A stretch of DNA of 9,293 nt from a virus. Taxonomy: Duplodnaviria > Heunggongvirae > Uroviricota > Caudoviricetes. The DNA lies in IMG/VR virus record IMGVR_UViG_2554235177_000006. One strand, 5' to 3'. The translations under genes and the position numbers were made by a program. This document shows, one piece after another, positions 2,981 to 7,678 of this stretch. How positions within the stretch are numbered: position 1 is the stretch's first letter; each line of letters starts with the position of its first letter. The notes under the pieces are model-generated. The model worked only from the letters and a program-made list of their open reading frames with translations. It was not told where the DNA came from and did no database searches.

Positions 2981-3257
2981 GTGTGGTGGTTGTTGCTTTC
3001 CCGTTGCTGAAAAAGAAAACGCCAGACTGTTAGCCGGGTATCAGTTAGCGGGAGAAATTTTTAAATACTTCACAATTCAGGCGGTTGACTGTTGTCTGGT
3101 TTGCGGGGAGTTTGTTAAAAGAAACTGGCATGGTGAATCCCCCTGTGCGGAGGGGCAATCAGCGAGTAGGTATATGGGATAATCGCGGATTCAGGTGCTG
3201 GTACTGAATTCACCGGGAGGCACCCGGCACCATGCAATGGCACATAGCGCCACTCTC

Positions 3258-3294
3258 CAGCCCCTCTCCGGAGGGGCTGTTTATATTGATTTTG
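3258..3294 (+). terminator. Intrinsic terminator (GC-rich hairpin plus T-rich tail)
   Basis: Perfect 9-bp stem CAGCCCCTC/GAGGGGCTG with TCCG loop (3258-3279), then TTTATATTGATTTTG. Confidence 0.6.
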
Positions 3295-3313: not shown

Positions 3314-3649
3314 TTATGGACTTTGTTGTTTTAGCCCATAAGGACATATTTGCAGAGTGCAACGGTTATTAAAGCATTCATTCAATACGTTATCTGTATT
3401 TGTAGGGCATTCCTGGCTGTTTTTGATTAAATTCCAGAATGTTTTATTGAATGGTACTACGTTGTAAATGGTTACAGGTAGCACTTTGTTATTGAGCATG
3501 ATACCTGTGTGAGTCAGTGTAAATATACTTTCAGGAGGTAAGAAAGCATCCGATTGATACCAGATTATTAATTTTATTTTACTCCATATGACTGAAAAAG
3601 ATATTCCGCATGATGGCTGGATAACTGTATCAATCACAATCCACTTCAT
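3314..3649 (-). CDS. Hypothetical protein (111 aa) in an AT-rich island, opposite to the late operon
   Basis: Clean 336-nt ORF in strongly AT-rich DNA, where stop codons are frequent, so unlikely by chance. AGGAA about 5 nt upstream of the ATG; candidate sigma70 promoter upstream on the minus strand (TTTACA, about 15-16 nt spacer, TATACT). No recognisable family. Confidence 0.4.
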
Positions 3650-4405: not shown

Positions 4406-4621
4406 ATGTACCAGATGGAAAAAATCACAACAGGTGTGTCATACACCACGTCAGCGGTGGGAACGGGCTACTGGTTCCTGCAGTTGCTGGACAGGGTTTC
4501 CCCGTCTCAGTGGGCGGCAATAGGCGTGCTGGGGAGTCTGCTGTTTGGGCTGCTGACATATCTGACTAACCTGTATTTCAAAATCAAAGAGGACCGGCGT
4601 AAGGCGGCGCGGGGAGAGTAA
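4406..4621 (+). CDS. S: Class II holin / pinholin, phage 21 S21-like, with dual start motif
   Basis: 71 aa from ATG 4406, with a second in-frame ATG at codon 4 (4415) giving 68 aa, the S21-71/S21-68 arrangement. Core GYWFLQ...[15 protein letters not shown]...[11 protein letters not shown](K/R)[10 protein letters not shown] closely matches S21 as I recall it. Confidence 0.85.
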
Positions 4622-4625
4622 AGTG

Positions 4626-5516
4626 ATGAATAAAAAATATGAACTGGTTGTTAAGGGGATAAATAATTACGGGGATAAGGTTACTGTTACTGTGAAGTCG
4701 GAAGGTGACGGGCAAGCGTCGCTGTTGTTGCCAGATGTGGCGATTAGTCTTGACCGTACTGAAGGTGCCACGCTGGAGTTTTACGAAGCTGAGGCGAAAA
4801 AGCAGGCGAAGCAGTTTTTCATGGATGTTGCTGCCGGGTTATGTGAATGGAACGAACCGTTGCCGGAAAAGCGCCCCGTAATTTTAGAGGCGCAGGATGT
4901 GTTGATAACCTACAAAGGAAAGCTACCGGGAAGAATTACTTGTTCTCTGAAGATGCCGCCGTCAACACTGCGGTCAGAAAAAGATGATGTTGAATCACGT
5001 ATTGAAAAACTGGAGAGCTACGTCGTTGAGCTGAATAAGAAATGGTCGATATTGGTGCCTTCTGGCGATGAAAAGCAGTTTGCTGCGTTTGACGATTATT
5101 GTCGGAAAGTGATGAGCAGAAATCTCGCAGAGTGTTTCAGTATTCATAATGATAATTTCAGTGACCCGGAATGGGAGTGTAACCGGCCATCCTTTGTTGT
5201 ATCCGGTGATGCTGGGAAAATAACCATCTCAGAAAATGGGAAAGTAACACCTCCATCGCACCAGCACAGTGAGGAGCTCATTGAATTTGCCATTGATTAC
5301 CTGAAGAACAATAAAAAGCAGGGGCTGATGAAGCGCGTTGGCCGTTGCATGGGATATCTTCAGGTAGCCGCTGAGATTGAAGCGCTGGCCAGTGGTGCTG
5401 ATAAGGATGCAATTGTGCGGGAGGCTCTTCTTCGTGATTTTAATACTCCACCCTTTAAAAAAGTGCCGGCTTACTGGCTTCATCCGGGGCTGACTTATCT
5501 TAAAGTGCGTATTTAG
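4626..5516 (+). CDS. Hypothetical protein (296 aa) inserted between holin and endolysin; function unknown
   Basis: ATG 4626 lies 4 nt after the holin stop, with GGGGAGAG upstream; long clean ORF ending TAG 5514-5516, 36 nt before the endolysin start. No transmembrane segment or catalytic motif recognised by eye; contains a charged helical stretch (RSEKDDVESRIEKLESYVVELNKKW). Confidence 0.7.
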   Translation: MNKKYELVVKGINNYGDKVTVTVKSEGDGQASLLLPDVAISLDRTEGATLEFYEAEAKKQAKQFFMDVAAGLCEWNEPLPEKRPVILEAQDVLITYKGKLPGRITCSLKMPPSTLRSEKDDVESRIEKLESYVVELNKKWSILVPSGDEKQFAAFDDYCRKVMSRNLAECFSIHNDNFSDPEWECNRPSFVVSGDAGKITISENGKVTPPSHQHSEELIEFAIDYLKNNKKQGLMKRVGRCMGYLQVAAEIEALASGADKDAIVREALLRDFNTPPFKKVPAYWLHPGLTYLKVRI

Positions 5517-5552
5517 TGGGCCAGGGACAGCGGCTGAATATTTAATATATCC

Positions 5553-6086
5553 ATGAACACCAAAATCAAATACGGCCTGTCGGCTGCCGTTCTGGCGCTG
5601 ATTGCCGCTGGTGCGCCTGCGCCTGACATTCTCGACCAGTTTCTGGATGAAAAGGAAGGCAACCACACCACGGCATACCGTGATGGTGCAGGTATCTGGA
5701 CCATCTGCCGTGGTGCCATCATGGTGGATGGCAAACCTGTCGTTCCGGGCATGAAGTTGTCGAAGGAAAAATGCGACCAGGTTAACGCCATTGAGCGTGA
5801 TAAAGCGCTGGCGTGGGTGGAGAAAAACATCAGAGTGCCGCTGACCGAACCCCAGAAAGCGGGGATCGCGTCATTCTGTCCGTACAACATTGGTCCCGGT
5901 AAGTGTTTCCCGTCGACGTTTTACAGACGAATTAATGCTGGTGATCGAAAAGGTGCCTGCGAAGCGATTCGCTGGTGGATTAAGGACGGTGGCAGAGACT
6001 GCCGTATTCGTTCAAACAACTGTTACGGTCAGGTATCCCGTCGTGACCAGGAGAGCGCGCTGGCGTGCTGGGGTATCGACAGATAA
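5553..6086 (+). CDS. R: SAR endolysin (T4-lysozyme-like, GH24; R21-like)
   Basis: N-terminal weakly hydrophobic Gly/Ala-rich segment (YGLSAAVLALIAAGAPA) typical of a signal-anchor-release domain; catalytic E-x8-D-x5-T spacing in EGNHTTAYRDGAGIWT. Confidence 0.9.
   Translation: MNTKIKYGLSAAVLALIAAGAPAPDILDQFLDEKEGNHTTAYRDGAGIWTICRGAIMVDGKPVVPGMKLSKEKCDQVNAIERDKALAWVEKNIRVPLTEPQKAGIASFCPYNIGPGKCFPSTFYRRINAGDRKGACEAIRWWIKDGGRDCRIRSNNCYGQVSRRDQESALACWGIDR
5971..5978 (+). other. Chi octamer GCTGGTGG
   Basis: Exact match read in sequence. Confidence 0.9.
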
Positions 6087-6242
6087 GCAGAATATTTTGC
6101 TGAAAAATGAGGAATGGCCACGCGGGCGGATAACACGAAATCCTGCGAACTGGCGAAACGTAAGTGAATAAAAGTAAAAACCCCGTTTGTTGGCACCAAG
6201 CGAGGTTTTGTGTTTCTGACCTTGAGTAAGGCAAGGGAGAAC

Positions 6243-6425
6243 ATGGCGAAGTGTAAACGAATTCTGTTGAGGTTGACTATGAAAAATGGCCTTGAACTGA
6301 AAGCGCCTGTAACTGATGACATCAGCAGAGCACTGGCTTTTGCCATTAAGTGGGTGGCGGTCGGTGTTGCTGTGTCCCCGATGCTGTATGGGCTGGCAAA
6401 ACTGGTCATTGCGTTGAAATCGTGA
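6243..6425 (+). CDS. Small putative membrane protein (60 aa) between endolysin and Rz
   Basis: ATG 6243 preceded by AAGGGAG; C-terminal hydrophobic stretch [27 protein letters not shown]. The stop is followed directly by the strong RBS of the next small ORF. Confidence 0.35.
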
Positions 6426-6439
6426 AGGGAGGATTAAGC

Positions 6440-6571
6440 ATGTCAGACAAACTCATAACGCTGGCGAAGATCCTCTGTGTAATTGTCGGCATTTCATTTT
6501 CACTAATGCTGGTTGCTCTTTTTCTTTCCATGGCCTGGATGATGTTGTCTTCGTCGGGGTTGCTGGGGTGA
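6440..6571 (+). CDS. Small putative single-pass membrane protein (43 aa) coupled to Rz
   Basis: Strong RBS GGGAGGA 7 nt upstream of ATG 6440; hydrophobic core [26 protein letters not shown]; stop TGA overlaps the GTG start of Rz (GTGA). Confidence 0.45.
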
Positions 6572-7041
6572 ACATAAACCGAATGCTTTCCGCGTTTATC
6601 GTTATTCTGCTGGTGGCCTGTGGTGCGCTGTGGATGGCAACAGACCATTACCGTGATAACGCGATTACCTACAAAGCGCAGCGCGATAACAAAGCCAGTG
6701 AACTGAAGCTGGCGAACGCAACCATTACTGATATGCAGGTGCGCCAGCGCGATGTTGCTGCGCTCGATGCAAAATACTCGAGGGAATTAGCCGATGCGAG
6801 AGCTGAAAATGAAACTCTTCGCGCTGACGTTGCCGCTGGTCGTAAGCGCCTGCGGATCAACGCCACCTGTCCAGGCTCCGTGCGTGAAGCCCCCACCACC
6901 TCCGGCGTGGATAATGCAACCGGCCCCCAACTGGCAGACACCGTTACACGGGATTATTTCACCCTCAGAGAGCGGCTGATGACGATGCACAAGCAACTGG
7001 AAGGGGCACAGGACTATATCCGCACTCAGTGCCTGAAATAA
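6568..7041 (+). CDS. Rz: Rz i-spanin (inner-membrane spanin subunit)
   Basis: Translation closely matches lambda Rz ([14 protein letters not shown]...DMQ(V/M)[12 protein letters not shown]...[10 protein letters not shown](M/I)TM(H/Q)KQLEG). Start either GTG 6568 (coupled) or ATG 6583. Confidence 0.9.
6609..6616 (+). other. Chi octamer GCTGGTGG
   Basis: Exact match read in sequence. Confidence 0.9.
6794..6979 (+). CDS. Rz1: Rz1 o-spanin (outer-membrane lipoprotein) embedded in Rz in the +1 frame
   Basis: 61 aa with lipobox-like LVVSAC and proline-rich [14 protein letters not shown]...WQTPL(H/N)GIISPSE, closely matching lambda Rz1. GAGGGAA upstream of ATG 6794. Confidence 0.85.
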
Positions 7042-7351
7042 GTTTTGTTGATGCGCCGTATCGTCGCTATATTCCCTCATTAACAGAGACCGCAGCCCGA
7101 CAGGGAGACTCCTCTGCGCGAGTGTGCGGGGATAATTAAAAACGATGCACACCGGGTTTTTACCGCGTTAATGATTCGCGGGTTTATCCCGGTGCGATGG
7201 TGGAAGAAACAGGAAGCTGTATTACAGAAAGTGCTACTACTGTATCCCGATGCGATGTATGTAATGTGAGTCAGATAATGGCACAGGATGTGGTGATGTG
7301 GCAGTCTGGAACACAGGATATATTGTCAGAATAAGACCCGTAGGAATAAAA

Positions 7352-7678
7352 ATGAAAAGACGCCTTTTACTACTTTTTCTGTTATCTGTCCTGGCAGTGG
7401 GATGCTCGCAGCAAAAAGCTGATGAGCCCCGGCAATTAGTGACGGTGTATCCACGATATCCGGAATATGCTGCAGCAAATTATATCAAGGGGCTGGTTGA
7501 GGTTAAGTTCGATATTGGTGCTGATGGGACTGTGACACGGATCGTTTTTCTCCGCTCAGAGCCTCATAATTTGTTTCGTGATGAAGTGGTGAAGGCCATG
7601 GCGAAATGGCGATTTGAAAAGAATCGCCCCTGTCAGGGAGTGAAGAGACAATTTATCTTTACGCCGTCACGTCCTTGA
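7352..7678 (+). CDS. Putative lipoprotein with TonB C-terminal domain (108 aa)
   Basis: AGGA 6 nt upstream of ATG; N-terminus MKRRLLLLFLLSVLAVGCSQQ is a signal peptide with a Cys at the likely lipidation site. The rest (GLVEVKFDIGADGTV...LRSEPHNLFRDEVVKAMAKWRFE) matches the TonB_C pattern G.V.VKFD...DG.V...S.P...F..EV..AM..WR.E. Confidence 0.7.
   Translation: MKRRLLLLFLLSVLAVGCSQQKADEPRQLVTVYPRYPEYAAANYIKGLVEVKFDIGADGTVTRIVFLRSEPHNLFRDEVVKAMAKWRFEKNRPCQGVKRQFIFTPSRP

Follow-up and report, generated by a model that had tools for sequence, protein, structure and literature searches.

Two small, predicted membrane-protein genes form an accessory insert between endolysin and Rz in a Qin-like lambdoid prophage

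The window analyzed here, a 9,293-nucleotide stretch of DNA from a tailed phage (IMG/VR record IMGVR_UViG_2554235177_000006), carries a lysis cassette in which the endolysin gene R and the spanin gene Rz, usually immediate neighbors, are separated by about 480 bp (from position 6087) that contain two small open reading frames (ORFs): ORF1 (6243–6425, plus strand, 60 aa, WP_001446668.1) and ORF2 (6440–6571, plus strand, 43 aa, WP_001280932.1). The locus raises the question of whether these are genuine genes and, if they are, whether they belong to the lysis machinery. A first-pass annotation had identified both ORFs, described their products as small hydrophobic proteins, argued that the second is translated as part of the lysis operon, and suggested that they could modulate a pinholin/signal-anchor-release (SAR) endolysin system, for example as antiholin-like factors or regulators of SAR release, or could act as membrane toxins. 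The present analysis indicates that ORF1 and ORF2 are protein-coding genes, predicted to specify inner-membrane proteins, and that they are not specific to pinholin systems; the general idea of small membrane proteins made with the lysis genes stands.

Direct succession of R and Rz is indeed the usual state. In a sample of 77 loci that was anchored on R and not on the insert, R abuts or overlaps Rz with nothing between them in 61 (about four-fifths), and in the Qin prophage of Escherichia coli K-12 rrrQ adjoins rzpQ; the ORF1-ORF2 insert is therefore accessory and dispensable for a working S21/R21/Rz cassette. Inserts of about 290–300 nt are present in 12 of the 77 loci, and 11 of these 12 contain a different small membrane ORF, ending in ...IGQIRWW and mostly located behind the same hairpin that precedes ORF1. 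The remaining loci are two with an array of four small ORFs, one disrupted by an insertion sequence, and one with a 328-nt insert. The interval found in the window is 100% identical in many E. coli chromosomes and covered to at least 80% in 990 of 5426 complete E. coli genomes, and phages PhiR5_2 and PhiR12 have the module with 96% identity.

In a second sample, of 150 distinct loci anchored on ORF1, the gene is followed by an intact ORF2 in 124 and by a frameshifted ORF2 in 3 (3 of 127 ORF2 copies), by a 28-aa ORF ending in AIRWW in 3, by a 49-aa membrane ORF in 14, directly by a lipoprotein gene in 4, and by something else in 2. The first-pass annotation had named poor conservation and tolerated frameshifts among the signs that would refute its reading; the ORFs are conserved and frameshifts are rare. 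A relative of S21/R21 is missing upstream in about 45 of the 150 loci. In two of the loci (L092 and L105), a phrog_217 holin is followed by a phrog_315 endolysin, which from its sequence we take to be GH108-like, and then by hairpin, ORF1, ORF2, and a 60-aa lipoprotein (phrog_7528), with no recognizable Rz or Rz1 in the lysis cassette (L092 1447–3534, L105 1976–3537). The ORF1-ORF2 pair is thus not tied to a pinholin or a SAR endolysin. The special role in such systems that had been proposed does not survive this observation, nor the positions of relatives among baseplate, tail-fiber, and capsid genes that are described below, nor the comparison with other R21-type cassettes, about four-fifths of which carry no insert.

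The slot between R and Rz has frequently been shuffled, as seen both in fragments and in fusions. In L053 (2426–2646) and in L060 it contains ORF2, then the 3′ fragment of a second copy of ORF1, and then the 28-aa ORF, and database proteins such as P0214 are ORF2-ORF1 fusions. An apparent holin-ORF1 fusion, P0239, comes from a contig of 554 nt and was treated as a probable chimera.

Evidence on coding capacity comes from about 280 related loci gathered from IMG/VR and from annotated records, in whose selection ORF2 played no part. The pooled pairwise ratio of nonsynonymous to synonymous polymorphism (pN/pS) is 0.256 for ORF1 and 0.337 for ORF2, as compared with 0.114 for R, 0.428 for Rz, and 0.495 for Rz1 in the same loci. 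Variable columns are enriched at third codon positions (17/7/37 at positions 1/2/3 in ORF1 and 21/13/26 in ORF2), and in 35 distinct DNA variants, indels occur at 6103, 6176, and 6427–6428 only and never inside the ORFs. Both are therefore protein-coding genes under purifying selection. The earlier view that they belong to the late lysis transcription unit is supported, and ORF2 appears to be tightly coupled to Rz. Two overlapping ORFs on the minus strand were considered and rejected: one of 126 aa (6029–6409) has a pN/pS of 0.47 versus 0.26 in the sense frame, is interrupted by stops in 3 of 39 variants, and crosses the hairpin; the other, of 80 aa (6406–6648), has a pN/pS (0.39 versus 0.34) that is poorly separable from that of the sense frame and lacks other support. 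ORF1 matches three PHROG families of unknown function (phrog_1115, 3.7e-42; phrog_4493, 1.9e-28; phrog_3246, 4.3e-19) and ORF2 matches one (phrog_4906, 2.1e-23). Searches of Pfam, NCBIfam, PADLOC, and the sequences of the PDB gave no meaningful match for either protein.

The hydrophobicity attributed to both products is strong in ORF2, with a Kyte-Doolittle maximum over 19-residue windows (KD19) of 2.89 at residues 11–29, and moderate in ORF1 (1.88 at residues 38–56), where it is confined to the C-terminal half; the corresponding values are 1.70 for transmembrane domain (TMD) 2 of S21 and 2.46 for the TMD of Rz. ORF2 is accordingly predicted to be a very hydrophobic single-pass membrane protein. 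An AlphaFold2 model of ORF1 from an alignment of 22 sequences has helices at residues 2–14 and 23–59 with a loop between them (predicted local distance difference test score, 75). The first helix is basic, a conserved MKNG turn follows it, and the membrane segment lies within the long C-terminal helix. Both proteins are predicted to reside in the inner membrane, the chain continuing past the membrane segment for 4 residues in ORF1 and about 14 in ORF2. They do not have the attributes of spanins: neither has a long periplasmic domain, a lipobox, or a match to PF03245 or PF06085, and Rz (i-spanin, 6568–7041, plus strand; PF03245, 2e-47) and the embedded Rz1 (o-spanin lipoprotein, 6794–6979, plus strand; PF06085, 4.4e-20) are present separately. 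It should be noted that ORF1 has other possible starts, a GTG at 6210 (71 aa) and an internal ATG at 6279, corresponding to Met13 (48 aa). Sequences resembling a Shine-Dalgarno element precede both Met1 and Met13 (GAGG in the latter case), and Met13 is conserved across the superfamily to which ORF1 belongs; it may also be used.

ORF1 and ORF2 are separated by a 14-nt spacer (6426–6439, plus strand), in which a 2-nt indel is tolerated at 6427–6428. The sequence aaGGGAGGAttaagcATG precedes ORF2, and the GGGAGGA located six bases 5′ of its ATG is a strong Shine-Dalgarno element, as the first-pass annotation had stated. The overlap between the ORF2 stop and the Rz start that it also described is reasonable, in that the TGA of ORF2 shares the sequence GTGA with a GTG at 6568 and an identical GTGA stop/start overlap is found at the R-Rz junction of insert-free cassettes, but it is not certain, since the Prokaryotic Genome Annotation Pipeline (PGAP) starts Rz at the ATG at 6583. 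The ATG used by related Rz genes (ATG AAC CGx) is ATA in the window, an arrangement common to 77 loci, so that Rz must start at GTG 6568 or at ATG 6583, and the distance from R to Rz is about 481–496 nt, depending on which start is used. Because the stop-to-start distance is 0–8 nt whichever short ORF (type A, B, or C) is located just 5′ of Rz, and because the Shine-Dalgarno element of Rz itself is weak, translational coupling of the small upstream ORF into Rz is likely.

ORF2 homologues were confined to phages and prophages of E. coli and Shigella in the searches made. A tblastn search recovered full-length ORF2, often unannotated, from 276 phage records, mostly of Shiga-toxin phages, and its length and hydrophobic character are kept across these records at 65–100% identity. 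The homologues in prophages Sp5 and Sp15 of strain Sakai are ECs_5707 and ECs_5741; these copies lack ORF1 and are located between ant, an antirepressor gene, and Rz, with a TGATG overlap with ant and a distance of 8 nt to the Rz start. ORF2 is a family separate from ORF1 and travels with Rz. ECs_5707 and ECs_5741, as direct homologues, and PHROGs 4906, 1115, 4493, and 3246, as matching families, are annotation entries only, and literature searches by accession, identifier, and topic found no paper on ORF1, ORF2, ECs_5707, or ECs_5741. In a comparative study of 279 Shiga-toxin phages (PMC8136144), the lysis cassette is given as consisting of S, R, and Rz/Rz1, and ORF1 and ORF2 are not mentioned in those passages of it that were searched.

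The left boundary of the ORF1 unit is a GC-rich hairpin with A-tract and U-tract flanks (6177–6209), within which a terminator-like site was found at 6184–6202. The hairpin resembles a bidirectional intrinsic terminator, with an A-tract, a GC-rich stem, and a U-tract, and a U-tract that is good on the minus strand also. It ends 33 nt before the ORF1 start, the intervening leader (6210–6242, plus strand) being composed of the U-rich tail, a small stem (CCTT..AAGG), and the ORF1 Shine-Dalgarno element GGGAG. The copy in the window has one C-A mismatch (CGAGG versus the consensus CGGGG). Across 24 hairpin variants 92.6% of cells are paired, and the pair 25–39 occurs as UG, GC, or AU; the covariation score was unmatched in 500 shuffles, although a −1 slide control was fairly high and five pairs never vary. 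In all contexts read but one, including those with unrelated flanks, the hairpin lies 30–65 nt upstream of genes of the ORF1 family, and the leader is conserved with it in all ORF1 contexts; the exception is a Yersinia remnant that carries a different hairpin. That it functions only as the terminator of the upstream gene is an insufficient explanation, because in L281 and L287 the upstream gene has a terminator of its own a few bases before the hairpin, which indicates that the hairpin belongs to the small-gene unit. No sigma-70-like sense promoter was found between hairpin and ORF1, nor on the plus strand in the intervals 5400–7400 and 6087–6700. As judged from sequence, the hairpin may block sense transcription that has not been antiterminated, end an antisense RNA, or act as a recombination linker, roles that are not mutually exclusive, the last being suggested by the tandem, near-identical hairpin copies in L294.

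The spacer that follows R (6087–6176, plus strand) travels with the 3′ end of R; Shiga-toxin phages that have neither the hairpin nor ORF1 behind it still keep it at 85–90%. In 195 phage records, only positions 1–155 of the query align, and Sakai Sp5 retains about the first 85 nt of the spacer and diverges thereafter. A 24-codon, TTG-initiated frame within it (6096–6171, plus strand; MLKN...RITRNPANW..VSE) is open in several spacer variants; no ribosome-binding site was seen for it, and it is probably not a gene.

ORF1 belongs to a family recognizable from a basic N-terminal helix, a conserved Met-Lys-Asn/Asp-Gly turn, the sequence DAP, and a membrane helix, many members ending in IRWW. A profile search of 1.84 billion representative proteins gave only 20 clusters of this family, and a second profile search gave 187 proteins, all named hypothetical, from Escherichia, Salmonella, Klebsiella, Serratia, Yersinia, and Enterobacter. 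The 28-aa AIRWW ORF belongs to the superfamily in a shortened form (shuffle z = 5.6 versus ORF1), and membership of the ...IGQIRWW ORF is probable, although the case is weaker. Relatives of ORF1 are found between baseplate genes (L286, L291, and L295), after tail-fiber assembly genes at the prophage end (L281, L287, and L292), and beside Rz in what is left of a prophage in Yersinia enterocolitica (L282–L285); in L294, three tandem units follow a lambda-type capsid gene. These positions fit mobile accessory genes of the late operon and not a lysis-specific factor. Each of the tandem units in L294 (2440–3403) combines a GC hairpin, almost the same in all three, with one or two small membrane ORFs, a layout that looks like a cassette array with the hairpin as repeated boundary. 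In L282–L285 (3001–3601), a 49-aa gene of the ORF1 family, P0243, which is listed in more than 1000 contigs, and Rz survive in a decayed remnant beside host genes.

The explanation that we favor, tentatively and with somewhat less than even confidence, is that the insert specifies late-expressed, membrane-active accessory proteins that are kept silent in the lysogen, and that ORF2 also couples translation into Rz. In this view the Qin-like lambdoid prophage carries, in its Q-dependent late operon, an accessory insert that consists of two separable pieces. The first, comprising the terminator-like hairpin, the 33-nt leader, and ORF1, would be a unit placed at many late-operon junctions in prophages of the Enterobacterales, with ORF1 as a member of a widespread, uncharacterized superfamily of small, presumably tail-anchored, inner-membrane proteins. 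The second would be the ORF2 gene, situated directly 5′ of Rz, or of whichever gene comes next, and translationally coupled on both sides. Transcription of the pair would occur only when Q-modified polymerase reads through the hairpin, so that the proteins would be synthesized late, with S, R, and Rz. They would insert N-in into the inner membrane and would act as nonessential modifiers of the end of infection, affecting the timing or completeness of lysis and release, and ORF2 translation would in addition bring ribosomes to the poorly initiated Rz start. The hairpin, possibly with a cis-antisense RNA, would silence ORF1 in the lysogen, which would be sensible if ORF1 harms membranes.

Several points weigh against this explanation. 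Late expression is deduced solely from gene order and from the lack of a sense promoter between hairpin and ORF1, and the topology of both proteins is a call from charge and hydropathy alone. The membrane segment of ORF1 is only moderately hydrophobic, and it contains Lys36 and Lys53. The positions of ORF1 relatives outside lysis cassettes make a role in lysis a guess for ORF1; a membrane function of any kind, exercised late or in the lysogen, would be just as compatible with them. It should also be recognized that the related loci were retrieved by similarity to ORF1, which skews the sample toward intact ORF1.

The proposed silencing of ORF1 invites comparison with type I toxin-antitoxin systems, and it is conceivable, although we regard it as rather unlikely, that the unit is of this kind, with ORF1 a small membrane toxin and a cis-antisense RNA of about 75 nt the antitoxin that silences it in the lysogen. 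The predicted RNA would extend from 6243 down to about 6168, cover the ORF1 ribosome-binding site, and end at the hairpin, which has a good U-tract on the minus strand and lies 30–65 nt 5′ of the ORF even where the upstream gene has a terminator of its own. A weak promoter-like site is present on the minus strand at 6250–6279 (TAGTCA, an 18-nt spacer, TACACT). Minus-strand −10-like hexamers, defined as having A2 and T6 and at least 5 of 6 matches within −5 to +35 of the start, occur in 10 of 13 units versus 20 of 109 annotated prophage control genes (Fisher p = 3.7e-5); they comprise at least four sequences (TATACT, TATAAT, TACAAT, and TAAAAT) at about +6 to +15. However, AT-rich 5′ coding ends yield such hexamers easily, and the p value overstates independence since the units are related to one another; a −35 element of any quality was not found, and the −10 in the window is weaker, with 4 of 6 matches (TACACT, as compared with TATACT in most relatives). 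Synonymous variation is nearly absent from codons 1–18 of ORF1 and ordinary beyond, a point in favor of this reading, but the internal start at Met13, with its GAGG, could explain this constraint equally well. In the predicted fold of the RNA (z = −5.65 in L105), the 5′ anti-Shine-Dalgarno stretch is free and is followed by a small stem-loop and by the terminator. The size and hydrophobicity of ORF1 are like those of known type I toxins, which are hydrophobic proteins of less than about 60 aa, the proteins of 60 and 43 aa each having a membrane segment. Against this, no sense promoter for a toxin was found on the plus strand in the two intervals given above, some ORF1-core genes have no hairpin (the L136 array), no Rfam match was found in the interval on either strand, and neither ORF1 nor ORF2 matched a known toxin family (Hok, Ldr, Ibs, TisB, Zor, and others) in Pfam or NCBIfam. 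Toxicity and antisense RNA are both predictions, and the putative cis-antisense RNA is best described as a lead and not a result.

A comparison with hokW-sokW, a type I system of the Stx2 prophage Sp5 that has been reported to aid phage release (PMC8621323), is informative in this context. Like the ORF1 unit, this locus resides in a lambdoid prophage of E. coli and specifies a membrane protein that is small and hydrophobic, and its control by a cis-antisense RNA over the translation start is known, a similar arrangement being possible, as a prediction, for ORF1. There is no sequence relationship, in that no Hok match to Pfam or NCBIfam was obtained. Moreover, Hok carries its membrane segment at the N terminus and is expressed from a promoter of its own, whereas the membrane segment of ORF1 is C-terminal and no sense promoter was found for this gene. 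Of the functions suggested in the first-pass annotation, the possible one of a membrane toxin fits the arrangement of a terminator and a putative antisense RNA better than that of a regulator of SAR release.

A lysogenic-conversion moron, a reading to which we likewise assign a low probability, would produce the proteins in the lysogen for a protective purpose, such as the exclusion of superinfecting phage at the inner membrane, an activity of other small membrane proteins of prophages. Morons are typically distributed in this way: the unit separates genes that in relatives are neighbors, and it does so at many junctions of the late operon, among them the prophage end after the tail fibers; the presence of the module in 990 of the 5426 complete E. 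coli genomes and the retention of a copy beside Rz in the decayed remnant across Y. enterocolitica genomes are also in its favor. Classical morons, which the lysogen expresses, are preceded by a promoter and followed by a terminator. Those such as lambda bor and lom and HK97 gene 15 resemble the insert in being extra genes between late genes, often for small envelope proteins, with a mosaic order and varied positions, but in the insert the hairpin is upstream, where it would block lysogenic expression, no sigma-70-like promoter was found between hairpin and ORF1, where only 33 nt are available, and Rz follows ORF2 without a gap. A search of PADLOC with ORF1, ORF2, and the type B ORF matched no defense family.

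It is distinctly improbable that ORF1 and ORF2 are dedicated regulators of the pinholin or SAR endolysin, whether as antiholin-like proteins or in the control of SAR release. They are located within an S21/R21 cassette, and the membrane segment of ORF1 has a weak local similarity to TMD2 of S21 (8 of 23 residues identical, E = 0.01 in a single comparison, shuffle z = 3.6), but this is a level expected among membrane helices, and comparisons of ORF1 and ORF2 with S21 TMD2 and with Rz TMDs (shuffle z 3.3–4.3) were judged to reflect ordinary membrane-helix similarity. The possible dual starts of ORF1 recall a hallmark of holin/antiholin genes. Several antiholins and lysis regulators are known, including S21-71, lambda S107, T4 RI, P1 LydB, and the Mu releasin gp25. 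As in these systems, ORF1 and ORF2 are small membrane proteins encoded in lysis cassettes, ORF1 possibly with a dual start, and such regulators tune lysis without being needed for it; however, no homology with them was detected, and the ORFs are neither specific to a holin type nor confined to lysis cassettes, the pair also occurring with the unrelated phrog_217 holin and phrog_315 endolysin and most R21 cassettes being without it. An antiholin-type identity is further disfavored in that Pfam, NCBIfam, and PADLOC contain no holin (e.g. PF04971), antiholin, spanin, or defense family that matches either protein.

Finally, that the ORFs have no protein function, and are recombination scars or mere ribosome couplers to Rz after foreign DNA parted it from R, is very improbable. 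In its favor, the short ORF found 5′ of Rz is in every case tightly coupled to it (0–8 nt), the Rz Shine-Dalgarno element is weak, and the slot contains shuffled fragments and fusions, but purifying selection on the amino acid sequences is comparable with that on Rz, the length and hydrophobicity of ORF2 are kept at 65–100% identity in 276 phage records, and the C-terminal IRWW of related ORFs is retained even when no gene follows (L280).

The surroundings of the interval are those of a lambdoid prophage. The corresponding region of E. coli strain 7/2 is a Qin-like lambdoid prophage with the order hokD, rem, a DUF968 gene, RusA, Q, IraM (minus strand), a class II holin, a YdfR-family gene, lysozyme, WP_001446668.1, and WP_001280932.1 (60 and 43 aa, both hypothetical), followed by the lysis protein (Rz), a TonB-family protein, and terminase. 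In the window, the S21-type holin gene is at 4406–4621 (PF04971, 2e-32), and R, the upstream neighbor of the insert, is a SAR-type phage lysozyme gene at 5553–6086 (plus strand; PF00959, 2.4e-24; named lysozyme by PGAP), the product of which has an N-terminal hydrophobic stretch at residues 9–27 (KD19 of 1.74). Between holin and endolysin is a DUF1327/YdfR-like gene (4623–5516, plus strand, 297 aa), a second insert in the lysis cassette, which matches phrog_1085 over its full length (296/296) and is called a truncated pseudogene by PGAP in a 100% identical genome. An IraM-like anti-adapter gene (3314–3649, minus strand) between Q and the holin gene represents a moron in the position, downstream of PR′, where these usually occur. 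Just after Rz/Rz1, in the place of bor in lambda, is a gene for a lipoprotein with a TonB C-terminal domain (7352–7678, plus strand), for which the PHROG label "Rz-like spanin" (phrog_1267) looks doubtful. When both strands of the whole window were compared with Rfam, no match fell within 6087–6571; a strong match to the STnc100 small RNA (sRNA) family (RF02076, 132 bits, E = 1e-29) is located at 3099–3288 (plus strand), downstream of the Q gene. Anti-sRNAs of the AgvB/AsxR type were considered as candidates for the interval and set aside, as they are associated with the moron site downstream of PR′ and not with the R-Rz interval, and a preprint on Pas sRNAs gave nothing concerning this interval.

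A broader proposal, which combines several of the above elements and to which we would attach little probability, is that the hairpin-first unit, with its leader and one or two tail-anchored membrane genes, is an undescribed mobile cassette of Enterobacterales phages that resembles a type I toxin-antitoxin system, in which an antisense RNA would silence the genes in the lysogen and Q-antiterminated late transcription would override it, and that ORF2-type proteins are unrecognized members of the lysis cassettes of most Shiga-toxin phages, acting with Rz. ORF1 and ORF2 themselves were already catalogued as hypothetical proteins; what deserves notice is the hairpin-first unit and the near-universal, often unannotated ORF2 of Shiga-toxin phages. 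About one in five complete E. coli genomes contains ORF1 and ORF2 or close relatives of them, and an ORF2 homologue is present in most sequenced Shiga-toxin phages. If it is true that these proteins change when lysis occurs or how complete it is, both the yield of phage and the release of toxin would be affected. The hairpin-first architecture recurs at many late-operon junctions, sometimes in tandem arrays, and may represent a general means for the safe carriage of membrane-active phage genes.

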